Shown: positions 25,140 to 64,000 of the stretch, piece by piece
Layout of the letters: every line of letters begins with the position of its first letter
Position numbering within the stretch: position 1 is the first letter of the stretch
Assembly (NCBI GenBank): GCA_036172245.1
Contig: JAYWIR010000074.1
Location: 186,001 to 250,000 of the forward strand
Length of the DNA stretch: 64,000 nucleotides
Source: Raillietiella orientalis
Taxonomy: Eukaryota
Direction: 5' to 3'
The notes under the pieces: generated by a model
Told to the model about the DNA's origin: nothing
Database searches by the model: none
The model's input: only the letters and a program-made list of their open reading frames with translations
Program-made: the position numbers and the translations under genes

Positions 25140-27660
25140 TCCTGACCCTTTTCTATTGGAGCGCAGAAAAGGTACTGGCGAGGAACAGGAGGGCATCCAT
25201 GCTCCGCCCGGGAACCCAGAAGCATCTACCTCGTTAGGGTGAAACTGGAGTTCCGTGGCTACGGCGCCAACACAAGCGGCTACGGCTGAGTTGTAAGCCT
25301 ACCTGGAGGAAGGGTACAATTTCCCTCTACTCTACAAAGTAGGCAACCTTAACTCTTTTGAGAGTGCGCGCGCTTTCTCGAAAGCGATGCACTCCCTCAA
25401 AGTACCCCAGGAGGAGCTCTTGGCGATGACCATCAGGAGTGCTGGACAGTACGTTAAGGTGATTTGCAAAGAAGCAAGTGTTGCCCAGCGTCTTCTTCGT
25501 ACACCTGTTTTTTGGGGGAAACGCCGGCTCCTCCTTATCACGGAGGATAGATCTGTCGTGATCCATCTCCTCGGAATCACCTTCCGGATAGCCAAAGAGG
25601 CTTTCCGAGAATAATTAATTAAATTTGGAACCCTCCACGCGTTGTGAAAAAAGCCGACTTCATTTCGGGAGCACGATTTGCTAAATTGCGGACTGGCTTC
25701 CGCGCGAATCACGGTTTGCGAGGGTTGCTCTTTACAGAAAAAGCTGGAGGTCAACGGCGTCCCCGTTGACATCTGGTAAGTTCGGAAGCCGCATTTATGC
25801 GGGCATTCCAGCACTTGAGGTCACCTGAAAAAAAGGTGCCCCCACTTGCCGTGCAAGCAATGCAAGCAACCCGGGCACACTCTTGCGGTGTTCTTGCAAA
25901 ATGAAGTCCGCGTCGCGTCCTCATAGAATGCGAAGAAGCGCGCGGCCAGAATATAAAATGTTCAGGGAGCCCAAGAGAGACCCACAGCTAAAAAGATAAC
26001 TATCGTGCCCGAAGTGAAGGTCAGCTCCGAGATCCCGCAAACCTCGGAGAAGGTCAAGGAGAACGGCCAGGAACCTGGATGGCAGGTAGTAAAATCCAAG
26101 AGGCAGAAAAGCCTCAAGGAACCAAAAAGAAATCTCGCGAAAAGCAGCGAGATATTGCCGCGTCGCGAAAAGATCAAACGCTGCTTTCTCGTCATCAAAC
26201 GCATTCCTGCGGTCGAAAAGAGCGGCAAAATCGCTCTCGTCGCTGCCGACTTTCGGCCCTCCGGCAAATTAATGCCGGAGGATATCGACCCGGCAGTGGC
26301 GTCCGTCGTCTAACGCATGCTCGAAGACGTCGCTTTTGAGCGAGCGGAGGAGCAGCTGGCTGCGTCCTTGTACCGTCTTGCCAAATCCGCGAAGAAGGCC
26401 TTAAGGTCTCGATCAAGAAGTCTTATATTCCGAACTCTGACGTAGAGGGGGAAAACACAGCCTGCGGCATCGCGGCCTCCCGCCCGAAGGCCAGACGCAC
26501 GAAGAAGGCTACCTGCCAAATTATCCCGTTCGTGGAAAAGGGAGAGATAATCGAGGGAAGCGAGCGTGCGAAGAAAGTAGACAACTCCGGGGACTATCCT
26601 CGAGAGGTAACCCTACTCTGCGACCCCGGAGAAAGGGAAAGGATAGAGTCTGTGCACCAGGTGCTTCAAGTGCCTCTGATGGCCGCGGTCCCCTTACTCG
26701 TTCCTCCCTTCTGTCCCTTGACAGGTGCTGCAACGTTAAGATCCCAGCCTTTAAGCCGGGAATCGCCTCTTGCCGCCGCCTGCGAATTGCCTGTTGGAAC
26801 GTCAACGGGCTAAGCGTCGACGGCAAGAGACGAGAAGTGGCCTCCATCCTGGCATCGTTCGATCTGGTGGTGCTGCAAGAGATACACACTATCTCCGCGC
26901 ACCAAGCAACGGAGATCGAGCGTATCTCGGGTGGACGGCTGATGTGGCGTTGCGGCACCGTTAAATCTTTGGTGTCGCGTTCCTGCTTCGGCCAGCTGTC
27001 GAGGCTGCAACAAACGGCGCATGGTTCGATAGTGCCGGTCGCGTCGGGAAGTTGAACATCAGGTGGTCCGAATTCATCGATCTGGTCATTACCAACCTCT
27101 GCGCACCAAGCAGCAGCGACGCGCTAAGGGCAAAGGCAAGGAGAGATCTCTACCTTACCCTGAGGCGCGAATACCTGGACGAAGCGGGAGTTCGCAAAGC
27201 GCACCTAATCGCATGTGACTGTAACCTTCGCCTGCTGCCAGTTGCGTCCGACACACTTCGGCACCGCGTGAATGAGCTGTGCACAGAGATCCACACGCGC
27301 AACTTATTTCCAGGAGATCCGGAAATGGCCGAAAGCATAGATCACGTGTTTCTTGACAAGCACTTATGCTGACGCGTGGGCAAACGCGGAAAGTTACCGT
27401 CGGAACTGTCGGACCATTACCGGATCGTATTCGAGGTGCGCCCACGCGATAGGGTTCCCCCGTTATCTCTGTGGCGCTCACCGGGAGACTGGATGGAACT
27501 TCCGGAAGCCGCGGAGCATCTCTGCGGATTCATACGGGGTTTCAGCTTGCAGACGCTTCAGGACTGGGGTCGCTTCAAGCTCTTGGTCCGGGAGTTTTGG
27601 GACGAGTTCCCTATGAATCTCCTGCCTACAGGGTTTGGTGAAAGCGCTCGTAACAAGAGA
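25140..27660 (+). mobile_element. D-related LINE fragment (D2): decayed ORF1 + APE
   Basis: LYKVGNL / EELLAMTIRS like 43880-44000; WNVNG, LQEIH, IDHVF, LSDH at 26795-27420; boundaries approximate. Confidence 0.75.
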
Positions 27661-29490
27661 TGACACGCTCTCCTTCACCAATGAAAGTGGGGGCATCCGC
27701 TCCCACGGAATCCGGGGCACTTGCCCTATCGGAATCGGGCGCAACCGCCCCCTCGCAAACCTCTTCGCCATTGGCGAGGAGTTGGAGTGACGTCGTTGCT
27801 GCACCATGCTTGGATGCAGTAGCGGAGCAGACTGCCTAAAAGGACAGCGGCTACAAGCCTTCTCTGACCTATAAGGTAGGCAGTGTGTTTGATGAAAAAA
27901 TTGCACGCTCCTTCGAAATGGAGCTGCAAAGGTTGAACGTGTGAGAGGAAGACCTTTTAGGCCTATCCGTCCTCAGTGGTGGCCAGCGAGTTGAGCTGAC
28001 ATGCAAAGAGGAGAGTCCGGCGCAGCGACTGCTGAACACCCCTCTTACGGTGGACGGCCGCAGGATCTTCCCTGTGACGGAGTACCGCTCAGTCGTGGTC
28101 CACCTCATGGGCGAATTACTCCGAATGGACAAAACTAGCGTCCATGATGAGTTATCGAAGCATAGTAGTCTGCACGCGTATTGGGCCAAACCCAATGTCT
28201 TCCGAACGTACGGAAGGCTATTCAGTGGAATGGCAGCAGTCCGCGTCACCCTACCAGAAAATGGTGGGCTTCCACACAAACTGAATATCGGCGAAGAAAT
28301 AGTCGATGTTTGGTACGTGGCTAAGCCCAAGTATTGTGGACATTGCAATGCAACAGGGCATCTAAAAAAGCGGTGCCCTAACATCCAATGCCACTTATGT
28401 GGAAATAAGGGCCACATCCGTAAGGTGTGCAAAAGAAGAGAAATATCGTCCCCATCCGCTGCCAAAAAGGCAAAGGGGAAACGCACGGGAGAGACGCATA
28501 AACAGAAACAGGCTGTAAACCCCCAGACGCCAGTCCCTATGCCCTCAAAGCAAACGTCGGTTGAGAACAATTCCGACGACGCTGGTGAGGGCGAAGGCTG
28601 GCAGACGGTACAGCCCAGAAGAAAGCCCAGGAGTCCCGAACGAAGCGCGGAAAAAACAAAAACGCAGCGCGAAAATCCGTGCCGCGAGAAAGTTCGCGAT
28701 TGGTCGGTAAAATTAGAGCGTGCGGAGGCACTCCATGCCTCCATCAGGGGAGCAATCTGCCCACTTGCGTCCGCCGAAGCCGCGACGGTCGATGACGAAT
28801 CTTCTGGGGAAACAGAGGGGGAACCGCGCGCCGCGCTCGACGCGATCGAAGGGCCGCCTTCCAGCAGGCGGTGGAAGAACTCGAGGCAGAACTGCAAGGC
28901 CGTGAGAAGAACTTCCGAAAAGGCTGACGAAGGCAGGCCGCGAGGAAGGTTCCGGATGCACGTGACGCCCAACCGGATGCCAGAATTGCGTCCTCATTAA
29001 CATAGGCGCTACCAAACAAGACAAGACGCGAGTCCCAGAATCCCAGAAGGCGCATAGGGATCAAGAAGGAGGAGCATCAACTGGCACCCGAGGGGGAAGC
29101 CGGCAACGTAAGAGCCGAGAGTAGGAATCTCATTTCTCGACACCGTGCAGCTGGCGACCCCCATGGAGGAGGATGTCCAGGTGGGTGAACCCCTACTTCC
29201 TCTACAAGGCCCCGACGACGACTCGTACTCCATGGAGGAAAGAGAAGCGATGCGCGGCGAACCCCCTCCTCTTAGCGTCCCGCCCGACAAGGTGGCGGGA
29301 GCCCCATTGCCAATTTCCCAGGATTAACACCTCGAATCGCCTGTTGATGTAGGATCCGCGTAACCTGCTGGAACGTCAACGGGCTGCGCGATGACGGCAA
29401 CAGGCGGGACACAGCCGACACCATGCGTGACTTCGACCTGGCACTCCTGCAGGAGATCCACGTGATAACCGCGGAGAACGACCAGAAGAT
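27661..29490 (+). mobile_element. Lineage E host, part 1 (ORF1 + start of APE)
   Basis: Knuckles CGHCNATGHLKKRC and CHLCGNKGHIRKVC in ORF 28050-29000; WNVNG...LQEIHVITAE up to 29490. Confidence 0.85.
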
Positions 29491-29823
29491 TTCTCACCCG
29501 GTCACACCAGGGCGTTTATTCCATATAACATAACCTAAAAAGCAATTATACAAAATAAACCAGTTAGGAAACAAACTCCCAACTGACGACTGAACAAGAA
29601 TGAAGAGATTATTACTGGCACGGAGGCCAGAGTAACAGTTTTGCGAACGGTGTGGGGGGGCGTGGAACACAACGAAACCAGATTAAAATAAAAACAATGA
29701 ATAAGGAGGACGGGATAAGGTACTTTGGGATCGCTCTGGAAGACACGGGGATAAAACCACGGGCACCGGAAATTTTACCGAGCGAACGGAAATGGGGTAT
29801 GGGTGGGCGAGAGGTCGCAGGGG

Positions 29824-34075: not shown

Positions 34076-34090
34076 CTGCCGAGTCGGTGA
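34076..34090 (+). repeat. 15-bp TSD, left copy (CTGCCGAGTCGGTGA)
   Basis: Right copy CTGCCGAGTCGGCGA at 39402-39416, one C/T mismatch. Confidence 0.88.
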
Positions 34091-35991: not shown

Positions 35992-36004
35992 GACTTCTCC
36001 TTTC

Positions 36005-39275: not shown

Positions 39276-39401
39276 GTACCCAAGGACTTCATAGTGGTAA
39301 AAAAAGTGCTAATGGTCTGGATGAGATTGTAGTGTGAATGTTTTTATAGAAAAATTTTAGAAAAATAAATTTACCCTACCCCTCGTGGGACTTGGGGAAA
39401 A

Positions 39402-39416
39402 CTGCCGAGTCGGCGA
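39402..39416 (+). repeat. 15-bp TSD, right copy
   Basis: Pairs with 34076-34090. Confidence 0.88.
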
Positions 39417-40762: not shown

Positions 40763-41492
40763 AGCGCAGGATATCGAGAAAATCGCAGGGTGTCGTTTGT
40801 TTTGGCAATGCGGCTCTCGCAACACCTGTGAAGTCGCGTTTTTTATGAAGCCAGCAGTCGCTTCCATCGTCAAAAACGTACGATTCGACAGGGACAGTCA
40901 TGTTGGCCAGCTTATCCTCAGGTGGTCCGACTAGCTCGATTTTGTCTTGCCTAATGTGTACGCTCGGAGAGGAGGACGCGGGTACGGACAACGTTCCCGT
41001 TTCCTCGAAAGCCTGAAGCGCGACTGGCCGGCGGATACAAACGTACGCAAGGCACATCTGATCGGAAAGGATTTCCACATCCGCCTGCTCTCAGGTGTGC
41101 CTTGCAGGCAAAAAGACGCAAGCAATGAGTTGTGCGCCGCTATGCGTACGCGCAACTAGCTAAGGGACCTACCGGAAATGGCTCAACGCGTAGACCGCGT
41201 CTTGCTTCACGCCGACCTGTGCTCAAGGGTTGGCAGACGAGGGAAACTTCCGTCGACGCCATCGGACCACTTTCGGTTGTTAATCGAGATTATGCCACGC
41301 GACCAAGGGCCACGATCCAGGGCGTGGCGCATGCCAGGGGACTAAACGCGCATCTTCGGTGCGGCGGAACATCCCGTCAGTTCTTGAGAGGCGTCAACCT
41401 CCGCAACCTCAAAGACTGGGACGGCATGAAGGTCTCGGTCCGCGACTTCTGCGAGGATTTCCCTTTGTACTGCCTGCCCAGGGAATTTGCAG
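40763..41492 (+). mobile_element. Lineage E host, part 2 (rest of APE up to the PRGFG-equivalent linker)
   Basis: Picks up where 29490 stops; collinear with 63050-63773. Confidence 0.85.
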
Positions 41493-43599
41493 TTGCCACT
41501 CGGGTACGCCCGGGGCGTTTATTAATAAAAAAACCTTTACAATCGCGGTACCAGGCCCCGCTCACGCCCTTATACACGGAACCTACCGGGAGGCCGGGAC
41601 GCAGCCCGGCGTGGCACTCACCGGCAGCAAAATGGGATGGGGAAAAACAAAAGTATAAATAAAAACGCTAACAAACAAAAGTGTTTGGAAGGCAGGGAAG
41701 GGATCACTGTTCGCTGAGAGGAGGGCCCATACGTTGAAGGAAGTCATCGAGATCCATCCGTATGTTCCCCAGTTGGGGCCATCCAGCAGCTCTTCGCCAG
41801 AAGCGTTGGGCATATGGGATGATATCCCTCGCGCGTTGACCCACTCCTTCCTTGTTGGTTTCGCTTCATGCCGCCACGATGCATCGGAGGCAGCACAAGG
41901 CTGCGATGGCTGTTTCTGGCTTCAAGGCGTGCTTCACGAAGAGGGGCCGAAGAACGTCTCTAGGGGAACTGCCCGTAGGGAGACCGAGAGTCGTCTCAAA
42001 CCGTTCCCAAAGAAGACGAAGGGCAGCACAGTGCACAATAAGGGGAGCGATTCCCGCTCTCCGCACCTGACACACGCAAGATCCACAACTCTTCTTGTCC
42101 AGTGGCAGCATCGTGCGTTGCAGGGTAAACCCCAATGCAGCAACAGCGACGCCGACTCTCTCGACTTAAGGGGAAGGATCCTGGACTCCTGAAGAAGCGG
42201 GGGCCACTTCAGCACATCCATAGAGATATCCAGCAGCTCGCCCCATCTTCTTAGTTTTCGCGGCTAGACGCTCGGGGTCGTGGCGTCCGCCAGTTGACCC
42301 ATGGTCCAGCCGCTCATTCTTTTCTCCCGTCCCTCGATGCAGCAGGAGACTTGCCACCTTGGCGTCCGACTGCTGTCAAAAGCCCTTCTCAGGAAGGGCA
42401 GCGTCGTAGCTAGGAATGTTGTCTCTGCCCACGTGCTTCTAGCTGGATTCTCCAGGAGATTCCTCAGAGTGCAGCGGGCGTAGGGGCCGCATCGGAGACG
42501 ATTCCACGTTTCGTGGCTTCTCTGGTTCACCAGAGCCCACGTTCCGATGTTCTCCTCCAGCCAGGCGGAGGAGTTGGCGGGGCAGCAAACCATCCAGCTG
42601 TTCTCCATGGCCAACGATGCCATGCGCCCGAGCTGTAAACCACATCCTCTGATCTTCCGGACGGAGCACAGAAGAAAAGACGCAAGTCCCTCGCACCGGG
42701 ACACACGACTGGCGATGAGGCGAGCCGGAATGGACCAGGGGGTGCTCCACATCTTTGCTGCTATGGCCAGGGTACGCCATCGCAGCTATTTCTACACGTG
42801 CTCCAACGTCAGGCGGCTTAGTCCGCCGTCACGATGGGGAGCGCACAGGTCCTTCAAGGGGAGTCAGGGCCTCCCCTTGGCCCAAAGAGCGATGGGAAGG
42901 AAATCCTTCATCCTCTTTTTAACAACTCCTAGGGCGGGGCAAACAAAAAGCAAGGGGCGGAGGATGGAGGCTGCAAAAACGTTCCAAACCAAGGCTCGCT
43001 CCGGCAAGCAAAATTCGACTCCCAGGTACGGGCCGATCGCCGTTTCGACTTTTTGTAGGCAGCTGGACCACGCTTCCGCAGGGGACAAGTCCTTCAACGG
43101 CACACCAAGGTATTTGATGCAGCTCGCCGTGGGGATCCCCAAACGGACACATTCCTGCTGCCAAGCCCACGCCGCACCGACTGGCAGCACCGACAACTTC
43201 GTCTTGTTCACCTGCAGTCCGGTCCCGCGGCTGAGCAGGTCGAAGAAATCTCCGACCGCCTTCTCCGGGGTGTACATAGATTACAGGAGCAGAAGATCGT
43301 CGGCATAAACACTTACGGCGGGCGTGCCGGGGCACGAGCTCGGCAAGGGGGCCAAAGTCACCCTGTACGCTCTCAGCACCAACTCAAAGTAGGTGCTGAA
43401 GAGCAGGGGACTCAGGCTATCTCCCTGCCTGATGCCCCGCCGCACCGGCACGCCATGCACCTTCTGACTGCTGAAAGAGACGGAAATTATCGCATGGCGC
43501 CAGCAGGAGCGCAGCTAGTTGATCAAGGAGGGTGGGAAGCCCATACGACCCAGGAGCTCCAAGAGGAGTTCCTGGACTACACAGTCGATCGCCTTGTGC

Positions 43600-46500
43600 G
43601 CTCTAGGGCGGACGTGTTTTCTCGTTGCTCCTCGGGCCAGAAAGTCGTCGTGTGGTTCGGGAAGCCCGCTGGGCCAGGAAGCAGCGGCAACGCCGCCCCC
43701 AGAGGCGATATAGAGCCAGGGGGCGGCGGCAACGTCGCCTTTAGAGGCGATGGAGGTGGGGGCATCCCCCCCACAGAATCGGTCCCCGCTGCAGCGCGGG
43801 TGTGGATCGCCGTTGTGTCGGCGCCATCGCCTGCAGCCGCGGCGGAATTGTCGGCCTATGTAGAGAAGTACAACCCCTCATTGTTCTACAAGGTAGGCAA
43901 TCTATATTCTTTAGAGAGCGCAACCGCCTTCTCGAAGGGCATGCGCGCTCTCGATATGAAAGAGGAGGAGCTTAGCGCTATGACCATCCGCAGCGGGGAT
44001 CAGTACGTTGAGGTCATCTGCAAACATGCAGAGCTGGCCCAACGACTGCTTGAAACCCCCGTTGTGATAGGAACACGCAGGCTCCTCCCTATTACGGCGG
44101 ACCGCAGCATGGTGGTCCACCTCTTAGGTGTTACCGTGCGGAAGCGCAAGGAACAGGTTCGCGCCCAGTTGGAGGAATACGGAAAGGTCCACGCGCAGTG
44201 GAAGAAAGTTAGTCCTTTCGAGGACTACAAGGGGCTGCAACACGGTCTCACTGCTGCGCGCGTGAGCGTTCGGGAGGGCTGCACTCTTCCCCACAAACTG
44301 GTGGTCGAAGGCGAAACCGTCGACCTCTGGTATGTGGGGAAGCCGAAATACTGTGGCTTCTGCAATACGTCGGGCCACCTCAAAAAGAGGTGTCCTAATG
44401 TGCAGTGCCAAGTATGTGGCACAATGGGCCACACGAGGAAGGTGTGCCCAAAAGCAGCAGTGCGGGTGGTTGCCAAGAGAAACCTTAAAAAACGCGCCCG
44501 GCTTCTGCAGAAAAGGCTGGCGGCGAAAGCTGCCGCGAAGGCTGTGCCACCCGCTCCCAAGACCCAGGCCGCACCCCAGACCCCTGCGACCAACGCCGAA
44601 AAAGTTGAGGCAGCCGGACAGGAGACTGGTTGGCAAGTGGCAACTGCCAAAAAATTAAAGAAGGAGAGGAGGATGGAAAGGAAAATCGCCTACCAACAGA
44701 AGAAGAAAGAGAAGGGTAGCGCGATAATTAAAGAGTGCAGCGTCGTTGTCGAACGCGTTCTCGATGTTGCCGAACGCTGCCGGAAATAACTCGCCGCTGC
44801 CGACGAGCTCCGTTCTGTTGACACAGTCAACAGCGAGGAAAGCGAGCCGGCGGCGGCGTCCGTCATCCACACCACCATCGATGACGTAGCCTTCGCGCGA
44901 GCCGCGGAGGAGCTGGCAGCCTCGTTGCAGCCATAACCCTCCAAGGCTGGCAAGAAGGCCGTAAGGCGTCCGGCCTCCCCTCAGGAGTCCCTTACTTCCA
45001 CCCCCGAGGTGGATGCCGGAAGCGCAGCCTCCGTTTCCACGGCAAAGCGCAAGAAGGCTTACGTAAGTCCACAAAGCCAAGGAAGCTCGTATTCCCCGTC
45101 GAAGGGGAAGAGATGGGTTCCGCAAGCGAGGGTGCCATGAGCGTGGGAAACTCTCGGGACCCGTCGCCCGGGAGACTCCCACGCGCGGACACGGAGGGGA
45201 TGGAGGGGGGGTGGAGGCCGCACAGGTGCCTCAGGTGCCTGAGAAGGCAGAAACCCCCATGGATACCCCGCCCGCCTCGCAAGAGGAAGGCTCCCCACAC
45301 CTGAATCTTCCCAGCAGTAATGCCGGAAATCTCCTGCCGCCGTCGTCTACGCAACGCCGTTTGGAACGTGAACGGCATCACAGACCCCGGCAGGAGACCA
45401 GACATGGCCGCCCTTCTGGAGTCCTACGACCTCGCGCTGCTGCAGGAGATCCACGTGATCTCTGCAGAACAAGCGCAAGAGATCGAACGGATCTCCGGAG
45501 GGCGGCTACGGTACAGGTGTGGGAGAGCGAAAAGTTGCGGTGTCGCCTACCTGCTTCGGCCAGCCGTCGAGGCCGCGGCTCGGGGCGTGCGGTTCGACGA
45601 TAACGGTCGTGTCGGTTAGCTGACTCTCAGGTGGTCCGACTCAATCGCTCTGATCGTCACGAACCTGTACGCACCGAGCGGCAAGGACCTGATGAACAGG
45701 AGGGCGAGGAAAAAGCTTTTCCTTGCCCTCCGGAGAGACTAGCTGACCGAAGCAGGCTTGCGGAATGCCCATCTGGTTGCAGGCGATTTCAACGTTCGCC
45801 TGAAACCAGATGGGCAGAATCCCGAGCGTGACCTGGTCAACGAGGTGTGCATGGCGGTGCACACCTGTAACTTGTTGGCCAGTGCACCAAGGATGGAAGA
45901 CAGCATTGACCAGGTGTTTCTTGACGAGCACCTGTGCCCTCGCGTGGGCAGGCGCGGCAAGTTACCGTGCGAGCTGTCCGACCATCGCCCGCTAGTCCTC
46001 GGGATCCATTAGCGCGACAGGAGCCCCCCCTTGTCAGCGTGGCGTCTCCCAGGGGACTGGCTGAAGCTCTTAGACGCGGCGGAACATCTCCGCACATTCA
46101 TAGGGAGCTTCAGGCTGCGGACACTCAGGGATTGGGACCGCTTCAAGCGGTCGGACTAGGAGTTCTGCGATCAGTTCTCTCTGCCCCGCCTACTCACGGG
46201 TTTTGGGACCGGGGTCCGTAACAAAGGAGCCTACCTGCAGGCCCGTCGTTACGCCAGGACCCCCGACATGCGCAGGCTGGCAGAATACAAAGCGGGAGCC
46301 GAGAGGCAAGCCTGGCAGTCCGGATCGGCCAGCTTACTGGATGATCAGGGCCATGAGCATTCGGCACCTGCTCAAATCCGCCGCCTGCTGCGGAGTTACT
46401 ACTCCTCCCTGTATTCCAGGGCACCTCCAGAGAGGAACGTTTACGACTCCTGCTTCAGGAAGGCGCTTCAGCGATCGGAAAGGAGCAGAGAAAGACCCTC

Positions 46501-48125
46501 GACGAGCCTTTCACGATGGACGAGATCCTCTCGGCCATCGAAAAGCTCAAGAGGCGAGAGGCTTCAGGGGAGGACGGCCTGCCCGCGGAGTTTTATCAAA
46601 CTTTCGCGGCTGAGCTTACCCCCCTGGTACAGCAACTCACCTTGCTGATACGCGAAACAGGTGACGTTCCCGCCTCGCTTCGTTCGGCAAAGGTGCGGCT
46701 GCTCCCTAAGGGAGGAGATCTGAGGAGCACGATCAACTGGCGTCCCATCACAATAGTGAATGCGGACGCCAGGTTGCTAGCAAAGGTTTGGGCAGAGCGT
46801 TTGGGACGGGTTGCCAACATCTTCATCAGCCCAGAACAGACATATGCTGTTCCCGGGCGAAGCATGGAGGCGAACCTGTTCCGCGCTTCCACCTGGCTAG
46901 AGCTCCAACATGAAAGGAGCTTGGTGTGCAGCCGGCATTCCGGTGCGTGCGCCGGCAGGGGGTTGGATGGTCGGGAGGGGGAGGGAGCCCTTGCGGTCGC
47001 AACCGACTTGCGGAAAGCATTCGATTGCGTCGACCAGAATCTCCTTCTGGAGCTTCAGGATCCCTTGCGCTTCCCGGCCTCATTAGTGGCCTATCTGCGC
47101 TCCAGCTGGCGCGACGCGCTTTTCAACGTTACATTCAGCGGGCAGACCGTGCACGGCGTGCCGGTGCGGCGTGGAATCCCGTAGGGAGACAGCCTGAGCC
47201 CCTTACTCTTCAGTACCTACTTTGAGTTGGTACTGAGAGCGTACAGGGGAACTCTGGCGCATCTGCCGCACGACTGTGCCGGTACGCCGGCCGTTTCAGC
47301 ATACGCGGACGACCTTCTGCTGCTGCTCCCTATGTCCACCCCGGCTTCGGCGGTCGAGGAGTTCTTCGACCTTCTGCATCGGGGAACCGAACTTCCGGTG
47401 AACAGAGCGAAGTCTTCCGTGATGCCAGTTGGTGCGGCGTGGGCAGGGCAGCAGGACTGGGTCCGTTTGGGGATCCCCACGGTGAGGTATTTCAAGTACC
47501 TTGGTGTGCCGTTGCGGGACTACTCCCCTGCAAAAGCGTGGTCCGGCTTCCTCCAAAAAGTGGAGACGGCGATCGGACCGCTCCAAGGCGGCAGGTTTTT
47601 CTTGCCTGAACTGGGTGCAGTTTGGAACACGTTCACGGCTCCTCTCCTCCGCCCCTTGCTTTTTGTTTGCCCCTCCACAGAGAGAATAAAAAAGCGGACA
47701 AATGACCTCCTTGGTATCGCCCTTTGGGGCAACGGGAGGGCCCGAGATTGCTTAAAGGACTTGTGCGCTCCTCGTCGGGATGGTGGTCTGGGCCTCCTGA
47801 CGCTGGAGCGGCTTTAGCTTCAGCTCCAGTTCCGCTTGTCGGCATTCGTTCCAGAGTTGTGGTGCACCTGTTGGTGCATCCCTGCACGTCTCCTTCTTCA
47901 GCAAGCCACCGGCAAGACGGGACTGACGTCGTTTCTTGCACTCCGTCGCCGCGTGAACCGATGCGGACTCCAGCTATGGAGGGTGGCTGCGCTGTATCGA
48001 AAAAACCCAGGATTGCTCACCTGTCGCCTGTTGAACGGTAGCGCCTGGTTGCAGGAAAGTGTTCGAACGTGGGGACAGTTCGGCATGCAACGCTTCCAAC
48101 AGGAACGAAGGTTCCTGTTTGGGGG
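43600..48125 (+). mobile_element. Lineage D LINE (D1), 5' end intact, 3' end deleted
   Basis: GACGTGTTTT at 43611; knuckles CGFCNTSGHLKKRC and CQVCGTMGHTRKVC; ORF2 from 45320 with WNVNG, GDFN, DLRKAFD, AYADD. Confidence 0.9.
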
Positions 48126-49584
48126 TTGCACGAGGGACCTTTGTTGAAGTCTTCTTTCCTTCATTACGGTTCCTCACTTCGCGTGGCGCCGTAAATGGAG
48201 ATTGTGCTCCATGGCCATCTTTGAAGCCATTAGCGTCTTTGGACGGGAGCACTTTCGATGGCTCCGACACGCTCGTCATGGACGCTGCCTTCGGAAGGGC
48301 TTTTAATCCCTTCGTTGGCATGGCATCCGCGCCAGTCGAGAGCTTGCTCTCCGATTGCGACGGCGTGAGATTTTTCTCCGCTTTCGCGGTGTTGGATCGC
48401 GACGCGGATTTTTTTTTTCCGACTTTCGAAGTCGACACGGCACAACCCTTCTTACCCGATTTGGGCTTCTCAGCCACTGCAGGAGGTGAAGGAATGGATC
48501 TGACGGTACTGGAAGTGTCCTTACCGCCGTTGTCCATTGGCGTCCCCGCCGGTTGCTCGAACTCCGAGAGAGCCGGGCGTGCTTGGGAAGGACAGCTATT
48601 GCGCCTAGGGGGACTTACCATTGTTTCGGATTCCCCGCACCCTTTCTTTTGCGGCTCCCCTGCCGCGAGAGGGGGCGCGCAGGGCTTCGCGTGCGAGGTT
48701 TCCTGCTGCTTTGGGGCGACATTCCGCCTCGCGATTTTTCGGAATTTCTGCCGTGGGGTCTCCAGGTTTTTCGCAGATTTTTTCTTTTTATCCGCGCTTT
48801 GTTTTTTAAAATTGAGCTCCGCGGCTGCCTTTTTTCGCAAAAGATCCGGGCAATTTTTCAATTGAAGCCCGGATAGTTTGCAATAACGGCATTTTCTAGA
48901 GGGGCATTTATCCAAACAATGCTCCTCCTTCCCGCATTGCTCGCACGTTCTTACTTTGCCCACGAACCACAGGTGAACGACCGTGTCTTTCACCTGTAGT
49001 TTGGTGGGCAGCAGACGGCGGTCCGGCATTGTAAGCCGGACTCCAGCGACTCCGCTATGTATGGACGGGAAGTCCTTGAGGTTGCTACGCATCCTCCACA
49101 GCGCATGGACCGTGGCGAATTTCGCCAATGCGTTCCGAATATCAATATCGCAGATTTCCGACTCGATGTCGAAAATCTCCGCCACAAATGAGTCGTCCTT
49201 GGCGGCCGGGAAGACCTTCTGGCCACGGATCGACAACGGGTCAGTTCATCGTTGAACTGATTTCCGTCGCGCGCAGAAAGAAAGCCACTCACCTTATATC
49301 GGAGAGCAGTTCTATAGCCTTGGGCTACGTATGCCCGCAACTCCGACTCGTCGAGTGGTTTCCCTTTGACGGCTGCTGTGGCAGCAACGTCAGCAAAACT
49401 CCTCTCCAGTGTCGAGAAAGACGAAGTGGAGGCGGCCGTCGGTTCCGCGATTGCAGATCCGAATGCTGTTCCTACAACTTGGGTAGCTTCGGGTTGGGTC
49501 GACATCGTCGTCAAAATGTACGACGCCAAGATGAACCGGATGAAAGCACAGAGACGAAAGCGAAGAAAAACACGTCCGCACTCG
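48125..49584 (-). mobile_element. Tandem lineage B copy (B2): 5'UTR + partial ORF1
   Basis: Highly similar to 53927-55499 apart from a deletion near 49240. Confidence 0.9.
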
Positions 49585-49592
49585 ATTGAAAT

Positions 49593-49622
49593 TTATCACC
49601 CGGTCACGCCGGGGCGTTTATT
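49593..49622 (-). terminator. LINE 3' terminus: AATAAA + CCCGG-CGTGA-CCGGG hairpin + short A tail (best-preserved example)
   Basis: Minus strand AATAAACGCCCCGGCGTGACCGGGTGATAA; homologs at other element ends; function inferred. Confidence 0.7.
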
Positions 49623-49905
49623 AATAATAATAAACTGGTCAGGGACAATGTCCCCAACCAACAGAACGACAGAGAACATAGAAAAATTACCGCCACGCAG
49701 GCCTGGTAAACAAACCGCTCGCAGCGTGGGGGGAATGAGGGGAAACAAACAAAAATCAAAAACTGGAGGGAAGGGAAAAGGTTTTTTGGTTAGGCTCCGT
49801 ACTCACGGGGATTTAAACGATGAGCACCTCAAATGTTCCGGAGCCTATGGGGACGCGGGTGTAAAAAGAAAATACAAATTTAGTTTATGGAGGGTAGGGC
49901 AATGA

Positions 49906-52900
49906 TCACCGGGTTGGCCGCTGATGAGGGTGTGTAAACCGGCGGTGTATTGCGGCGAAATTCCTCTTTGTCTCCTCTATCAAATGAGGCCATCTAGCGG
50001 ATGCTCCCATGTAGAAGGATGCTTTGCTGATTACCTCTTGGTACTGTCCGTTGATTACCAACGCCTGGCGGACGGAAACTATCGCGCGTATGCAACCGAT
50101 GGTTGCAATCCTTGCGCTTACTGAAAGCCCGCTCGGCGTGAAGAATCGTCGCAGCAAGTCTCTTGCGGTGTCCACGGGATGCAATAGTGCTGTTGCCAGC
50201 CTACGCCACAGTCCTTGTAGGACACCGCAGTCCAGAAGTAGGTGCGGAATCGACTCCTTCGATCCGCACCGAACGCAGTTCGCAGACGCAAGTCCCCCGG
50301 AGTCACGATGCCAACGCTCGTTGCACTGAAAACCCCAGTGAACGAAAAGCAGCACGGCTTGTTTCCAAGCAAGGGGGAGCAGCGAACTGTCCATACACTG
50401 TGGAGGGACTACAAGTTCTTCGGGGGTGACAGCAAGTTCTTCTGCCCACCGGAGAAGTCCCTTTGCAGTAGCACGAGGAGTGGCGGCGTCCGCCAACTCA
50501 CTTGTCTTCCAGGTGCCAAGGAGTTTGGTTCTTCCCGCTATCGTGCAGGAAACCTCCCACCTCGCCGGTTGGTAACTGTCGTTTCTTGCCCTGAGGGCAG
50601 ACAGCGCTGCGGCAAGAGGCGGGGCAGCCAGGGTAGAAAACTTCACCTCGTCCTGCAGTACTTCTTCCAAGGATCGTGGAAAAAATTGGCGCAGGGGGCG
50701 AAGATCTTCAGGGCGTATTCCTTGGAACGCCGCCCAGGATTCAACAGACTCCTGCCGCCAAGCTTCAAAGTTCATTGGGCGGCAGGAGATCCAAGAGTGT
50801 GCTTCCAGAAGTGCGGTCAACTGCCGCAATGGAAACCTGAAACCCCGCTTCCTGTATTGAGTGCCCGGCAAAAGCGAGAGAAATCCTCCGCTGCCGGCGC
50901 ATCTCCGCAGGAGAATGCGAGCTGGCACACACAGGGGGGAGGTCCATAGCTGGGCACACAGTGCCAGCAGTCGGAACTGCACCTGCAGTCCGATTCGCTC
51001 CATTGTCAGGATACCCAAACCAGCATCCCGACGCGGAGCTGACAAATCTTTAAGGCGGATCCTGGATCTCGCCGGACCCCAGAGAGCGTTCCTGAGCAGG
51101 CGCTTAGCCCGCTGTTTTGCCGCATAGGGGGGGTCCAAAACAAAAAACAGGGGCCGGAGGAGGGGGGCCACAAAGGTGTTCCAAATAGTCGCCCGTTCCT
51201 GCAAGGTAAACTTGCCGTTAAAGAACGGGCTGATGGCCAACTCTGCTTTCTGAAGACAGTCCGCCCACGCTCCGGCTGCGCCGAAAGCGCCCAACGGAAC
51301 GCCAAGGTACTTAAAGTACCCGCCCGTGGGGATCCCCAGGCGGATCCAGTCGGACTGCCCCTCCCACGACGTACCCACAGGAACGACCACGCTCTTCTCT
51401 CTGTTCACGCTCACGCCCGCTCCTCGACGAATCAGGTCGAAGAAATCCTCGACACTGGACGCCGGGGTGGACATGGGGAGCAGAAGAAGCAGGTCATCAG
51501 CGTAGGCGGCCACGGCAGGCGTTCCCGGGCAGGAGCTTGGCAAGGGAGACAGCGTCAGCCTGTATGCTCTTAGCACCAACTCAAAGAAGATGCTGAAGAG
51601 CAACGGGCTTAAGCTGTCGCCCTGTCGGATGCCCCTACGAACGGGAATACCATACGCGCGGCAGCCGCTAAAAGTGATGCAGGTTAGCGCGTGGCGCCAG
51701 CACGCGCGCAAATACAGCAGGAGTTGCGCCGGGAACCCAAGGCGTTCCATAAGCTCCAAAAGCAGCTTCTGGTTTACGCAGTCGAACGCCTTGGGGAGAT
51801 CGACCGCGACCGCCAAGGCACCTGGCGTTCCCTCCTGCCGTCGGCGCCTGTTCTTTTTGCCTGCGGCAGTGACTTTCGCAGCAGCCTGGCTTTGCTGCGC
51901 CACAACTTCCTGCAGCTGCATCCATGTACGCGCGAAAAGGATGTTCGCCTCCATGGATCGTCCCGGAACCGCGTAGGTTTGTTCCGGGCTCACCACAGAT
52001 TCCGCGATTCTTCCTAACCGCGCGACTCACAGCTTGGAAAACAACTTGACGTCCGAGTTCACCAAGGTGATCGGACGCCAGTTGTTAAGTTGGCGCAAGT
52101 CTCCGCCTTTCGGCAGGAGACGCACCTTCGCTGAGCGGAAGGAATCAGGGACATTCCCGGATTCACTCATCAGCGTCGCGAGTTTCAGCATCAAAGGAAT
52201 GAGCTCCACTGCAAAGCACTGATAAAACTCTGCAAGAGCCCATCCTCGCCTGGCGCCTTTCGTCTCTTCAGCCCAGCGATGGCGGACGAAAATTCATCCG
52301 CCGTGAAGGGCTCGTCGAGACGTTCGCGTTCCTCCTCGCCGACAACACGAGCATCCTGAGACAGGAGTATCTCAGAAAGAATATCCTCCGTCGGGGAATC
52401 CGCGTAGAGCGAGGAGTAGTAGCGTCTCACAATGCGGCGTACTTCGGCTGGGGCCGAACATTCCTGGCCTTTGTCGTCCAACAGGCATGCTGCTCCGGAC
52501 TGCCAGACCTGGCGCTCGGCCCTCGCCTTGTACTCTGCGAGACGCCCGACATCCGCGCGTCTCGAAAACGTGCGGGCCTGCAGAAAGTCTCTCCTGTTGG
52601 CCACGCCCTCTCCGAAACCGCGTGGAAGCCGGTGCAAGGGGAATTGGCAGCAGAACTCGCGGACAGATCTTTTGAGATCGTCCCAGTCCGCAAGTTCTTG
52701 AATGGCAAAGCCTCGGAGGTATCCACGTAGATGCTCCGCAGCCTCCGGTTGGCTAAGCCAATCTGCCTGCATCCTCCAGTTTTGCAACGGAGGCCCCCTG
52801 CCTGGCGGAAGGATCTCAAACTCCAACCTGTGGTGGTCAGAAAGCCTAGTCAACAATCTTCCTCTCCTGCCCACACGCGAATGCAGGTTTTCATCGAGGA

Positions 52901-53498
52901 AAACGTGATCGAGCGATCTTTCCATTCCAGGTTCGCTGACCATCAAGTTGGCGGCGTGCACGGACGCGCACATCTCGATGGGCAGCGCGCGTTCCCTCGG
53001 GCGGCTCCAATCGTCGGAGAGCAGGCGGACGTTGAAGTCCCCAGCGACGAGGTGCGCCACTTGGAAACCGGAGTTATTGAGCCAGTGGCTCTGCACCTCA
53101 CCAAAGAAAGCTACTCTTTCTTCGAGGTAGCGAGAGCCACTCGGCGCGTAGACGTTCGTAACGACGAGATCGATGGACTCGGACCACTTGATGACAAGCT
53201 GGCCTATCCGTCCGTTGTCATCGAAACGAACACTGCGCACCGCTTCCGCCATTTTTCCTCTTACGAGGAACGCGACGCCGCACGTGTGTGCGCCGCCGCA
53301 CCGCCAATGTAGCGTTCCGCCTGCGCGCTCCTCGATTTCGGCTGCCTGCTCGTCGGAGATTACGTGAATCTCCTGCAGCAACGCGAGGTCGAAGGGGCGC
53401 AGGGCGTTGGCTACTAATCGCCTCTTCTCGTCGTTCTGCAGTCCGTTCACGTTCCAACACGTTACGGACAGACGACGAGAAGACGCGATTCCCCGCAT
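49906..53498 (-). pseudogene. B1 ORF2 (~1200 aa APE-RT-zinc finger); one frameshift (~52235) and one TGA (52027-52029)
   Basis: ORFs 52191-53498, 52027-52209 and 49906-51996 join into one protein: WNVNG, LQEIH, NVYAP, GDFN, LDH, SDH, WRPITLVNSDVK, GIRQGD, YADD, KYLG, CVRC...H...C. Confidence 0.93.
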
Positions 53499-53503
53499 TA
53501 CTG

Positions 53504-55444
53504 CTAAGAAGGTGGCGGCTTTTTGCTCGCTTTATCCGGCGAGCAGACGGCGAGCAGCACGACTGGCTGGAGGGGACGGTCGCCACCGTCCTCTGTCGTG
53601 CTGCATGCATGTAATGCTTCCACGCCAGGCTGAACCCCGTCGGGTTTCGTGGAGACTTCGCGTGGCTTCGCGGCGAGCGTTGCCTGGCTGCCTACTTTTG
53701 ATCGGCGCGCACACGCTTTCGAACGAGTTGTCCTCTTCTCGGTGATCGGAACGGCATCCATTTCGGAGTCCGACCGGCGCATGTTCGATCGGATTTCGGC
53801 CTTCCGCGAAGCAGTGACAGGTTCTGCTGGATTGACAGCTGTCCTGTTTTCGTTTTCCGTCACCAGGGCATCGCTTTTGGTGACGGCTGCTTTCCCGGCG
53901 CGCGCGTTTTCCGCGTGCTCACGCGCAGTTGCACGAGGGACCTTTGCTGAAGTCTTCTTTACTTCATTACGGTTCCTCACTTCGCGTGGCGCCGTAAATG
54001 GAGATTGTGCTCCATGGCCATCTTTGAAGCCATCCGCGTCTTTGGACGGGAGCCCTTTCGATGGCTCCGACACGCTCGTCATGGACGCTGCTTTCGGAAG
54101 GGCTTTTAATCCCTTCGTTGGCATGGCATCCGCGCCAGTCGAGAGCTTGCTCTCCGACTGCGACGGCGTGAGATTTTTGTCCGCTTTCGCGGTGTTGGAT
54201 CGCGACGCGGATTTTTTTTTTGCCGACTTTCGAAGTCGACACGGCACAACCCTTCTTACCCGATTTGGGCTTCTCAGCACTGCAGGAGGTGAAGGAATCG
54301 ATCTGACGGTACTGGAAATGTCCTTACCGCCGTTGTCCATTGACGTCCCCGCCGGTTGCTCGAACTCCGAAAGAGCCGGGCGTGCTTGGGAAGGACAGCT
54401 ATTGCGCCTAGGGGGACTTACCATTGCCCCGGATTCCCCGCACCCTTTCTTTTGCGGCTCCCCTGCCGCGAGAGGGGGTGCGCAGGGCTTCGCGTGCGAT
54501 GTTTCCTGCTGCTTTGGGGCGACATTCCGCCTCGCGTTTTTACCGAATTTCTGCCGTGGGGTCTCCAGGTTTTTCGCAGATTTTTTCTTTTTATCCGCGC
54601 TTTGTTTTTTAAAATTGAGCTCCGCGGCTGCCTTTTTTCGCAAAAGATCCGGGCAATTTTTCAATTGGTGCCCGGATAGTTTGCAATAACGGCATTTTCC
54701 AGAGGGGCATTTATCCAAACAATGCCCCTCGTTCCCGCATTGCTCGCACGTTTTTACTTTGCCCACGAACCACAGGTGAACGACCGTGTCATTCACCTGT
54801 AGTTTGGTAGGCAGCAGACGGCGGTCCGGCATTGTAAGCCGGACTCCAGCGACTCCGCTGTGTATGGACGGGAAGTCCTTGAGGTTGCTACGCACCCTCC
54901 ACAGCGCATGGACCGTGGCGAATTTCGCCAACGCGTTCCGAATATCAGTATCGGAGATTTCCGACTCGATGTCGAAAATCTCCACCACAAATGAGTCGTC
55001 CATGGCGGCCGGGAAGACCTTCTGGCCACGGATCGACAACGGGGTGCGCAGCAAACGTTGCACAAGTGCAGCGTCTTTGCAACGCACCTTGAAATAGCCC
55101 ATGTCTTTTACGGGCATAATGGCGAGAAGGTCCTCCTCCCGCACGCCAACACGGGTCAGTTCATCGTTGAACTGATTCCCGTCGCGCGCAGAACGAAAAC
55201 CACTCACCTTATATCGGAGAGCAGGTCTATAGCCTTGGGCTACGTATGCCCGCAACTCCGACTCGTCGAGTGGTTTCCCTTTGACGGCTGCTGTGGCAGC
55301 AACGTCAGCAAAACTCCTCTCCATTGGCGAGAAAGACGAAGTGGAGGCGGCCGTCGGTTCCGCGATTGCAGATCCGGATGCTGTTCCTCCAACTTCAGTA
55401 GCTTCAAGTTGGGTCGACATCGTCGTCAAAATGTACGACGCCAA
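53504..55444 (-). CDS. B1 ORF1, 646 aa, nucleic-acid-binding protein with two CCHC knuckles and a long low-complexity tail
   Basis: Open frame; CEQCGNEGHCLDKC and CRYCKLSGHQLKNC. Confidence 0.9.
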   Translation of the reverse strand: MASYILTTMSTQLEATEVGGTASGSAIAEPTAASTSSFSPMERSFADVAATAAVKGKPLDESELRAYVAQGYRPALRYKVSGFRSARDGNQFNDELTRVGVREEDLLAIMPVKDMGYFKVRCKDAALVQRLLRTPLSIRGQKVFPAAMDDSFVVEIFDIESEISDTDIRNALAKFATVHALWRVRSNLKDFPSIHSGVAGVRLTMPDRRLLPTKLQVNDTVVHLWFVGKVKTCEQCGNEGHCLDKCPSGKCRYCKLSGHQLKNCPDLLRKKAAAELNFKKQSADKKKKSAKNLETPRQKFGKNARRNVAPKQQETSHAKPCAPPLAAGEPQKKGCGESGAMVSPPRRNSCPSQARPALSEFEQPAGTSMDNGGKDISSTVRSIPSPPAVLRSPNRVRRVVPCRLRKSAKKKSASRSNTAKADKNLTPSQSESKLSTGADAMPTKGLKALPKAASMTSVSEPSKGLPSKDADGFKDGHGAQSPFTAPREVRNRNEVKKTSAKVPRATAREHAENARAGKAAVTKSDALVTENENRTAVNPAEPVTASRKAEIRSNMRRSDSEMDAVPITEKRTTRSKACARRSKVGSQATLAAKPREVSTKPDGVQPGVEALHACSTTEDGGDRPLQPVVLLAVCSPDKASKKPPPS

Positions 55445-55480
55445 GATGAAGCGGATGAAAGCACGGAGACGAGAGCGAAG

Positions 55481-55491
55481 AAAAACACGTC
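55481..55491 (-). promoter_or_regulatory. Conserved 5'-end motif GACGTGTTTTT (candidate internal promoter element)
   Basis: Recurs close to the 5' end of ten elements in the window; function inferred. Confidence 0.55.
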
Positions 55492-57810
55492 CGCACTCGA
55501 TTGAAATCTCCCGCTATCAGGTGAGCCTTTCGTACATTGGTATCCGCCAGCCAGTCACGCTTCAGGGTTTCTAGCAGCCAGGTGAGGTAGCAATACCCTT
55601 GTTTGCCGCTGGGGCAATGCACGTTTTTGACGATTAGGTCAATCGATTCGGACCAGCTCAGAATCAGCTGACCGATCCGAGCGTCCTCATCAAACCGCAC
55701 GCCCTTTACGGCAGCGTCGATGGCTGGCTTGACAAAGAACGCGACCCCGCAGGTGTTGCGGACGCCGCACCGCCAATACAACCGACCCCCCGCGATCGTG
55801 TCGATCTACTGGGCGTCTGCCGCGGTGATCACATGGATCTCCTGCAGCAGGGCCAGGTCGAGCTCACGCAGGGTGTCGGCCGTATCTTGTCTGTTGCCGT
55901 CGTCGCGCAGCCCATTGACGTTCCAACAGGCCGCGCGAATTCGACGGCGCCTGGCGAGCCCAGCTGTTAGCCCTTGGAAAACGGCGATGCGGCGTCCGCC
56001 ACCTGCTGGGGCGGGACGCTAGCAGGAAAGAGAAAGGTGACAGGTACTGAAGGCACCTGTTCCTCCTCCTCCATCGGTGGCGGCGCGTCGGCCGGATCAC
56101 CGGGAGGTGTAGTCACGCCTATCTGTTCGCCCTCCTCCATGGGTTCGGGCTGCTCAGGTATCGCGACTGCAGGGAGGACTTCGCCCCCTGCTCATGTCCT
56201 CCATGGGGGTGGCCGACTTGACGGCTTCCGGGTGTGGGTGTTCCCCCTCTGGGATTTCCATGCTGCCGCTTCCTTCCAGCTTTTCCTCCTCGCTGGTAGA
56301 GGGGAGGCGCCTCCTGGGTTTCTGGGACTTGCGTCCCTACTTCCTGGGGGGTGCCTCCGAGGAGAAGGATGAGCTTTTGGCCCCCAGGTCGCACTCACCT
56401 GCGGGGGCCTTCTTCGTCGGAGCTGACCTGCGTACGCCCTTGCGCGACGGGGTTTCGCACTCGGCGAGCGTTGCTGCGAGCTCCTCCTCCGCTTTCTCGA
56501 AGCCCGCGTCTTCGCCAGCGGCGACGGTTGCCGCGGGCTGCTCCGCGACCTTATCGAGGGCGGCGTCATCGCTGTTTTGCGGACATTGCCGCGGGCGGCC
56601 TCGGCAGGAACGGCTAAACTTTCCAGTGCCACCGAGCATTCGCGGAGTTGTTTCTTTGAAAGCGGTGCAGCTTTTTTCTTTTTGCCGACAGTTTTCTTCT
56701 CCGACTTTTCTCCTGCCATCACTTTCTTTGTTTTTCCTTTTCTGGCCTGAACCAGCTGTTAACCCTTCTCCATCCCCGCGTCCACGGGAGCTCTTTCCTC
56801 CGACGCCTGCACGGGAGGAAAGGAGGCTGTCAGTTGGGAACGGCCATTTTCGCGAACTACTCTTTCTATTAGCTTTCCACGTTTTCCCTGCGCCTTTTTG
56901 GCGGCAGGGGGCACCGGGATAGGGCGCTTTGGGCACACGCGCCGAACGTGACCCTTTTCCTCGCATAGGAGGCACACAATGTTCGGGCACCTTTTTCGTA
57001 GATGCCCTACTGCATTTCAGTAGCCACAAAATTTGCGTTTCACCTCTTACCAGAGGTCCACCGCTTCTTGGCAGACCTCCAGCTTGTGGGGAAGCGCACC
57101 ACCCTTTTTTACGGTGATACGCGCCGCAGCTCGACCTCCGAAAATGCTATTGTAGCCTTGGAAAATCGTGGACTACGGCCACAACGCGTGCACTTCTGCG
57201 TGCTTTTCTAACTGCTCGCGAACCGCTGACCTAGTCATGCGATTGGAGATCCCAGTGAGATGGACCACCACCGAGCGGTCCATCGTCACCGGCAAGATCT
57301 TTCAACCATCAACGATCAGCGGGTCGGTGATCAGGCGTCGGGCAAAGGTGATATCTTTGCATACCACCTCGACCCGCTGCCCGTCGCTGAAGACAGAGAG
57401 GCAGTTAGGATTTTTTTCGAAGATATTGGCGTTCTGCAGCGCCTTCTTAAAGGCGTGTGCAGTTCGCGCATCAAAAAGGTTGCCTAACTTTTAGACTAGC
57501 GAGGGTTTATACCCCGCTTTCTTGTAGGCTTCCATCTCAACCATGGCTTTCACGCTAGGCGCGGCCACCATGGCGCTCCATGACCTCGGCGTCGCCGGGG
57601 ACGATTCCGGGGCGGATGCTTCTGATTCAGTAGGCTGTGGGGACGAACTAGCCTACCCCACGCCTACTTATATCGCGGTGTCCTCTGGCAACGCTGCCAT
57701 CGGACACCGACGATGTGCACGCACAAACCACTCAGCAAAAAACCACTCGCCTTGCCACGCAGGCGGAGCGCAAAAAAAGCACGTCTTCTCTCCACAGAGG
57801 GGATTTGGAG

Positions 57811-58392
57811 TTGCCACCCGGGTACGCCCGGCGCGTTTATTTATAAAAACTCTACAATCGCGGTACCAGGCCCCGCTCACGGCCTTATGCACGGGACCTA
57901 CCGGGACGCCGGGACGCAGCCCGGCGTGGCACTCCCCTACAGCGAAAGGGGATGGGGTAAAACAAAAATAAACACAAAAACGCAAACAAACAAAAGAGGT
58001 TGGAGGGAAGGGAAGGGATCACTGTTCGCTGAGAGGAGGGCCCATCCGTTGAAGGAAGCATTCGAGGTCCATCCGAATATTCCCCAGTTGGGGCCATCCA
58101 GCAGCTCTCTGCAAGAAGCGTTGGGCTTCCATCTCGGCAATGGCTTCTACGCTAGGCGCGCCCACCATGGCGCTTCATGACCTCGGCGTCGCTGCGACGA
58201 TTCCGAGGCGGATGCCCCTGATCCAGTAGGCTGTGGGGACGAACAAGCCTCCATACGCCTACTTTCATCGCGGTGTCCTCTGGCAACGCTGCCATCGGAC
58301 ACCCACGATGTGCACGCACCAACCACTGAGCAAAAAACTACTTGCCTTGCCACGCAGGCGGAGCGCAGAAAAAGCACGTCCTCTCTCCACAA
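57811..58392 (-). mobile_element. ~580-bp internally deleted lineage F derivative with both termini
   Basis: 58127-58392 matches the F 5' end (57527-57797); 57811-58126 matches the F 3' end (41493-41811); flanked by 13-bp target copies. Confidence 0.88.
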
Positions 58393-63773: not shown

Positions 63774-64000
63774 TTGCCACCCGGGTGCGCCCGGGGCGTT
63801 TATTGAAACTCTACAAAAACGTGGTACGAGGCCCCACTTAAGGCACCACAACACCGTACCTGCCGGGACGCCGAGATGCAGTCCGGCGTGACGCTCCTCG
63901 GCAGTGGAGGGGACTTTGGGAGGAAACAAAAAGAAATAAACTAAATATAAACAAAAGAAGTTTGGAGGGAGGAGTAGGGATCACTGTCCACTAGGATGAG
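63774..64000 (-). mobile_element. 3' end of another lineage F element, running out of the window
   Basis: Minus strand AATAAACGCCCCGGGCGCACCCGGGTGGCAA; 3'UTR similar to 57811-58030. Confidence 0.85.

Follow-up and report, generated by a model that had tools for sequence, protein, structure and literature searches.

Long interspersed nuclear elements (LINEs) that integrate at a fixed target are known from ribosomal DNA (rDNA), telomeres, small RNA genes, microsatellites and a few transposons. R1, R2 and further LINE lineages each have a precise site in the 28S rDNA, a specificity which is attributed to the endonuclease. RIME of Trypanosoma brucei is a short derivative of the 5' and 3' ends of ingi, and the LINE Zepp has a poly(A) tail. 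Here we describe a 64-kb stretch of Raillietiella orientalis DNA (contig JAYWIR010000074.1), hereafter called the window, in which a LINE designated F lies antisense within a related LINE, E, at the codons R-G-F-G of the linker that connects the apurinic/apyrimidinic endonuclease (APE) with the reverse transcriptase (RT). We consider it quite likely that F is a target-specific, APE-driven L1-like LINE which lands at these codons (LPxGFG) of its sister lineage E.

Among the systems described so far, the Tx1 group includes LINEs with transposon targets, such as Tx1 in the piggyBac-type element Tx1D and Tx1-Mar in Mariner-N4_AMi, whereas Tx1-8_Crp and Tx1-4_AMi target long terminal repeat (LTR) retrotransposons; in the target-specific Tx1-Mar/SINEU-3 system, tandem SINEU-3 copies sandwiching a target-site duplication (TSD) are explained by sequential insertion (PMC4494074). 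What F shares with this group is an APE-type LINE that sits inside another transposon with position and orientation fixed, targets that differ between related families, a TSD enclosed between tandem copies, and a short non-autonomous partner (mini-F) at the same site. The target of F, however, is a coding motif in the second open reading frame (ORF2) of a sister LINE and not a DNA transposon, an LTR element or an RNA gene. The L1 clusters formed by Zepp in Coccomyxa/'Chlorella' and by ZeppL in Chlamydomonas are said to arise by insertion into existing copies (PMC8226300, PMC3446292, PMC9940879), and like them the window is a LINE-only island of nested elements. Unlike it, the cluster descriptions in these sources name no base-level target or lineage-specific sites, and the arrays they portray are mostly 5'-truncated 3' ends, whereas the 5' ends of F and mini-F are complete. 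The copies of F, E and two further lineages of the window, G and H, end in GGCAA, AAAAC, ATA and AGA, respectively, and not in poly(A). As with R1 and R2, several LINE lineages each have their own precise site in a shared multicopy target; for R1 and R2, however, this target is a host gene, and here it consists of the elements' own relatives, each insertion disabling a competitor. Mini-F, of which a single copy was seen in the window, is like RIME short and built of the 5' and 3' ends of an autonomous LINE. The primary Zepp papers aside, full-text literature searches returned no description of LINEs that target the coding motifs of other LINEs, and among the target-specific APE LINEs F would thus stand for a target class that is new.

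Target copies around F and mini-F

A preliminary description of this DNA had placed four 13-mers at and near the F insertions, three of them bracketing F and mini-F in E and the fourth in a separate host, E2. All four were found at those coordinates (Table 1), and on the plus strand the locus reads E-left, 13 bp, F, 13 bp, mini-F, 13 bp and E-right. The element end TTGCCACYCGGGTRCGCCCGG directly follows the 13-mers at 41480, 57798 and 63761; as a 21-mer with up to three mismatches it matches the window 3 times, against 0.00 matches expected from 100 shuffles. The F-type 3' ends (3/3) are antisense to an E-lineage LINE and start at the first base past the R-G-F-G codons, in the same L-P-R-G-F-G register of the endonuclease-RT linker, which agrees with the antisense insertion at PRGFG that had been proposed. 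E2 also proved to be a host of its own with the identical register, its 13-mer (R-G-F-G) being directly followed by an F-type end. That the target is seen four times holds for the number of copies present, but three of these share one locus and only two hosts are independent. The 13-mer alone is not over-represented, with 24 matches at up to three mismatches against a mean of 20.0 (24/100 shuffles reach 24), and the signal therefore lies in its position and not in its frequency.

The three 13-mers at the E locus agree with each other at 11/13, 11/13 and 9/13 positions, where the chance of such agreement at a fixed place is about 1e-3 for at least 9/13 and about 1e-5 for at least 11/13. Their disagreement fits the age of the elements, F and mini-F being 89-90% alike. 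In an alignment to the uninterrupted relative E3, E-left reaches E3 position 806 and E-right starts again at 837. Between these points E has 43 nucleotides (nt) against 30 in E3, exactly 13 more. Because collinearity of E with E3 returns after a single 13-bp copy is retained, the 13 bp at the E locus behave, as judged from the sequence, as a TSD of host sequence. The frame of E crosses the site as LPREFA / R*FGKG..., matching LPRGFGEGV of other lineages. The duplication measures 13 bp for both F and mini-F, and the far end of the element in E2, designated F2, lies beyond the window.

Table 1. Coordinates of the E, F and mini-F locus, its nested inserts, the second host and the empty LPxGFG sites (positions within the window; aa, amino acids; UTR, untranslated region)
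Feature	Position	Strand	Remarks
Host LINE E, part 1	27660..29491	+	5' region, ORF1, APE aa ~1-66; broken by H at 29492 (tblastn, junction strings)
Host LINE E, part 2	40766..41479	+	APE aa ~62 to the L-P codons before the target
13-bp target copy 1, AGGGAATTTGCAG	41480..41492		codons R-E-F-A, decayed from R-G-F-G
F, 3' part	41493..43598	-	tail, 3' UTR, RT from KAFD-equivalent codons (HKAID) to the end of ORF2
Later inserts nested in F	43599..55500		E3, G', 8-bp TTGAAATT, G
E3	43599 to ~48081	+	at KAFD codons of F
G'	~48112-49585	-	at GDFN codons of F
8-bp TTGAAATT	49586-49593		between G' and G
G, near-intact	49594-55500	-	at GDFN codons of F, in tandem with G'
F, 5' part	55501..57797	-	APE aa 3 to ~170 (up to GDFN), ORF1, 5' UTR, terminus CTGTGGAGAG
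13-bp target copy 2, AGGGGATTTGGAG	57798..57810		sandwiched by F and mini-F
Mini-F, internally deleted F	57811..58392	-	both termini complete
13-bp target copy 3, AGGTGATTTGGAA	58393..58405		reading frame of E goes on from here
Host LINE E, part 3	58406..61319	+	remaining linker, RT, 3' UTR, tail AATAAACTTCCCGGCGTGACCGGGTGAAAAC
Second host E2	61320..63760	+	E lineage; ORF1 and APE to the L-P codons; ~100 nt 5'-truncated
Target 13-mer in E2, CGTGGATTTGGTG	63761..63773		R-G-F-G; register as in E
F2	63774..64000	-	terminal 227 nt; diverged element of the F lineage; runs off the window
Empty LPxGFG site in E3, ACGGGTTTTGGGA	46196..46208	+	
Empty LPxGFG site	7407-7419	+	
Empty LPxGFG site	13117-13129	-	
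Empty LPxGFG site	27628-27640	+	
Empty LPxGFG site	32527-32539	-	
Empty LPxGFG site	52610-52622	-	

Both F and its host E are LINEs with an APE and an RT. The coding pieces of F were located by tblastn on the minus strand as ORF1 (57661-56930), APE aa 3-178 (55994-55464) and RT aa 79-682 (43595-41770). The APE piece of F matches the APE of G at E = 2e-44, and the APE and RT open reading frames (ORFs) of G match Exo_endo_phos and RVT_1. Of the features that mark a target-specific LINE of the APE type, the body of F has both the APE endonuclease and the reverse transcriptase, and its insertions fall at the same nucleotide in a fixed orientation in a sample of two hosts. Its 3' UTR is ~330 nt long, and its 3' end reads on the minus strand AATAAAC, a short GC hairpin and then GTGGCAA, without poly(A). 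Mini-F is 582 bp long and joins 316 bp of the F 3' end (88.7% identical to 41493-41811) to 270 bp of the F 5' end (90.0% identical to 57527-57796) with a 3-nt overlap at the junction, where the N-terminus of ORF1 runs in frame into the final ~35 codons of ORF2. As mini-F bears both termini of F, the two separated parts of F can be assigned to one lineage. Within the inserts that now separate them, E3 RT at aa ~434 (+) is joined to G' ORF1 at aa ~533 (-) at 48081-48112, and this junction is best read as a deletion of the middle of F plus parts of E3 and G', at which F lost APE aa ~178-446 and RT aa 1-78.

Proposed course of insertion and relationship of F to its host

If F is target-specific in this way, its endonuclease would nick E on the sense strand, at the step from G to A of 5'-GGATTTGGAG^AAGGG-3' (GGAG^AAGG), and the freed 3'-OH would prime reverse transcription of the F RNA from its non-polyadenylated end (AAUAAAC, a short hairpin and GUGGCAA). 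The opposite strand would be cut 13 bp upstream, between CCC and AGG, and the outcome would be an F antisense to E with a 13-bp TSD. The first nick is assigned to the sense strand of E because a minus-strand element has a plus-strand cDNA, which is joined to GGATTTGGAG-3'. Every insertion would restore the 13-mer on both sides and so permit a second insertion, which may have given mini-F beside full F with the TSD sandwiched; the F/mini-F tandem could thus be attributed to the regeneration of the target at each insertion. We infer the order of strand cutting, as also that mini-F moved as a mini element. The specificity most likely comes from the endonuclease and not from an RNA guide or chromatin, lineage-specific recognition by the endonuclease being suggested by analogy with R1 and with Tx1-type elements, for which target choice is described as mainly set by this enzyme (PMC4494074). 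The nick sites deduced for the other lineages of the window share no motif, and an alignment of nine copies of the tail has little sequence variation, too little for a covariation test.

To place F among its relatives, trees were built from the RT of 12 copies and the APE of 10 copies. F was sister to E in the RT tree (support 0.997) and sister to E+E2 in the APE tree (0.955), where E2 grouped with E (0.952), and the 3' UTRs of E and F are 70% identical. Both trees and the likeness of the UTRs therefore indicate that F lands in its closest relative. LPxGFG is not aligned in the plant L1-type ORF2s, and the motif is conserved within the LINE group of the window only. Upstream of the target, GCCTGCCC is common to both occupied hosts.

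Several observations weigh against a target-specific F. Only two independent host copies are visible, as the third event shares its locus with the first, and since the 5' junction of F2 lies beyond the window the TSD is known only at the E locus. Among the eight LPxGFG sites in the window, the 2 in E-lineage copies are occupied and the 6 in copies of other lineages are empty, and two of the empty ones, at 7407 (GGATTTTGAG) and 13117 (GGCTTTGGAG), are one base off GGATTTGGAG^AAGGG. As these two sites differ at one base only, the sequence recognised by F must extend further, or near-identical empty copies must not have been available while F was active. No microhomology that could explain precise priming was found between the F tail and the primer end. 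The folding of six 3' ends gave z values from -1.71 to +0.54, the terminal hairpin being not stabler than in shuffled sequences. No further copy of F turned up outside the window: metagenome contigs scanned for the F tail gave 4 loci, all of them chance matches in unrelated GC-rich coding sequence, viral contigs scanned for F copies gave 0 matches, and prokaryote genome contigs scanned with the RT of G gave 14 pattern matches, none of them related. Besides, the F copy has a large internal deletion in which its own linker and half of the APE are gone, and the E/F junctions were read from the assembly alone.

Probable independence of the second insertion and rival explanations

As E and E2 stand side by side (61319/61320) with F-type ends at the same base in both, a single F may have been inserted in an ancestral E, and segmental duplication or gene conversion may then have copied the E+F composite; in a centromere atlas preprint, identical TSDs that are shared are interpreted in such a manner, as one integration followed by host recombination (10.64898/2026.09.17.752431). 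Joint duplication, however, predicts equal decay of host and insert, whereas F and F2 (~70% identical; 157 matches, 69 mismatches, i.e. 30.5% of 226 columns, and 15 gap columns) are more diverged than E and E2 (83-84% identical, with 84.4% over 589 nt in part 2 of E; 124 mismatches in 730 columns, 17.0%; Fisher p = 1.8e-5). The mismatches between F and F2 are also unevenly spread, with 2 in the terminal 31 nt and 67 in the other 195 columns (p = 0.0013), so that the tail is conserved and the rest of the UTR is not. Such a pattern would fit lineages that diverged while active, with a constrained tail, and not decay after a joint duplication. Apart from these, E2 begins ~100 nt into the E sequence, directly past the 3' tail of E, which has the look of a separate 5'-truncated retrotransposition, and the H insertion is present in E and absent from E2. 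Elsewhere in the window, young inserts occur in very different hosts, the copies of H being 93-95% alike and their two hosts 63% alike. The greater divergence of F/F2 than of E/E2, the 5' truncation of E2 and the presence of H in E only thus support E2/F2 as probably an event separate from E/F and not a copied composite, and we regard the copying of a composite as improbable.

It is also hardly probable that F, although site-specific, finds E through RNA, either with the 13-mer as a piece of the target carried on the F RNA for annealing or with an RNA guide in the F UTRs. Judged by sequence alone, a 13-bp TSD looks the same as a single target copy carried by each element, and co-transcription with the target has been discussed for R2 and SINEU (PMC4494074). 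Against a carried 13-mer, there is no pairing between GGCAA at the 3' end of F and TTTGGAG at the primer end, and with F antisense to E no F RNA would arise from transcription of the host. Against a guide, the longest exact match between the UTRs of mini-F and the 50-70 nt on each side of the target is 8 nt, which was equalled in 233/300 shuffles.

Targeting that is regional only, for instance to centromeric chromatin or to the LINE island, with base and orientation shared by chance, is very unlikely, for although any insertion in an all-LINE window falls in a LINE and the Zepp/ZeppL clusters are described as insertions into existing copies, in the passages on them without a base-level target (PMC8226300), the chance that a random second insertion hits the same base in the same direction within a ~6.3-kb host is ~8e-5 for one pair, and at least four different sites recur in the window, each tied to one lineage or sister pair. 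The layout of F, 13 bp and mini-F resembles the split direct repeats (A1...B1-A2-B2) of DIRS/Ngaro-type retroelements, which have a tyrosine recombinase gene but neither APE nor TSD; such a reading was rejected, as F encodes APE and RT and the 13 bp are duplicated host sequence; recombinase families were not found among the 35 ORFs of the window scanned with Pfam.

The LINE island and its other lineages

The window has a GC content of 50-60% over its whole length. On comparison of 35 long ORFs from it with Pfam, 13/35 had a match and all families were LINE-typical (RVT_1 in 7, zf-CCHC in 3, Exo_endo_phos in 2 and zf-RVT in 2). The window was also mapped by tblastn with the three ORFs of G, the best-preserved element (ORF1, 669 aa; APE-linker, 446 aa; RT, 706 aa), which found LINE pieces on both strands from end to end. 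Human L1 ORF2p was the best match of the APE-linker ORF among solved structures (E = 1.2e-12), and the RT matched R2Bm (3.6e-13) and L1 ORF2p (7.3e-12) about equally. The nearest named proteins were six plant L1-type ORF2s with 24-28% identity, and one close protein relative, the metagenome protein P0001, had 56% identity. As in the L1 superfamily, ORF2 combines APE, RT and zf-RVT, ORF1 has a CCHC knuckle, and L1 ORF2p is the nearest reference. A search of the entire window against Rfam gave 0 matches. The Pfam families, the tblastn map and the L1-type relatives together mark the window as a eukaryotic island built up of nested L1-like LINEs.

Other lineages of the island likewise stand at recurrent coding positions. 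H (-) at 29492-40765 lies antisense at the APE codons A-Q-E-I-E (aa ~62) of E with the tail GGGTGAGA, and the 5' part of a second H (1-1780) is in the same register as in E, its E3-like host running on from 1781. Independent re-targeting is more clearly seen in H than in F. G and c7k are sisters in the RT tree (0.976). Both are inserted in sense, with the 3' end abutting ATTTCAA of the GDFN codons, which are catalytic in the endonuclease; this is seen in F and at 10426 (10415-10433) in another host, and a third GDFN host has a 5' junction at the same motif at 2093 (2040-2110). G and G' stand in tandem around the 8-bp spacer listed in Table 1, and a duplication of greater length, ~16 bp, is suggested for the lineage of the element that starts at 2093. 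E3 and c10k, also sisters in the RT tree (0.972), are antisense at KAFD-equivalent RT codons in 2 hosts, the 5' end of E3 adjoining the H-K-A-I-D codons of F (43585-43616) and the tail of c10k adjoining G-A-F-D[GA] of a minus-strand host (~12296; 12285-12310), and the duplication implied at this site is ~14 bp. F' (23001-25215) forms a separate RT branch with a differing tail, GCGCCCCGGCGCAAACAAGT, and is antisense in the linker of its host, where it stands between IARIELAS and the expected D-W codons, ~20 codons upstream of LPxGFG. Among the ten recognisable 3' tails, 8 adjoin a coding position that can be identified in a host LINE, and for 7 the site was seen two or more times. Each of the nine tails in the main group (9/9) has AATAAAC, a hairpin and GTG, and then 3-6 bases specific to its lineage. 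Targets thus track phylogeny in the window, each site being tied to one lineage or sister pair.

The full-length 5' ends of different lineages share a motif, G/A-ACGTG-(T/C/A)TTTT, 9-21 nt from the terminus, which was seen at 57797, 58392, 55500, 49585, 40765 and 1780 on the minus strand and at 43599, 2093 and ~18269 on the plus strand, and which may be an internal promoter or initiator. The 5' end of E at 27660 is without this motif, and E may for this reason be slightly 5'-truncated. This end joins another host, K, in sense, 20 bp downstream of the GFG codons of K (27628-27660). At its other end, the tail of E adjoins the truncated 5' end of E2 at 61319/61320 without visible duplication. A far more distant LINE family, with an RT ~25% identical to that of G, is nested on both strands at 4408-6690, 21242-22696 and 35032-38475. 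G has three long open frames, and the ORF1 of the adjoining G' is 96-97% identical to it at the DNA level; the G lineage looks recently active, and F and E look decayed.

On balance, we lean towards the view that the island is a guild of sibling L1-like lineages that home to the coding motifs of one another, namely LPxGFG (F), GDFN (G and c7k), KAFD (E3 and c10k) and APE aa ~62 (H), and thus act as homing-type hyperparasites. If so, their targets would be hard to mutate away, since they encode the endonuclease and RT of the victims, and the same process would offer a base-level mechanism for the self-nesting clusters of the Zepp type that have been proposed as centromeres. A LINE landing in a conserved coding motif of a sister lineage would be a new target class and would explain, at the level of base pairs, the growth of LINE-only nested islands without damage to host genes. 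It would also create a conflict between siblings, in which synonymous escape at the target codons is set against retargeting of the endonuclease, and related endonucleases with differing 10-15-bp specificities would suit the study of how the specificity of APE-type enzymes changes.

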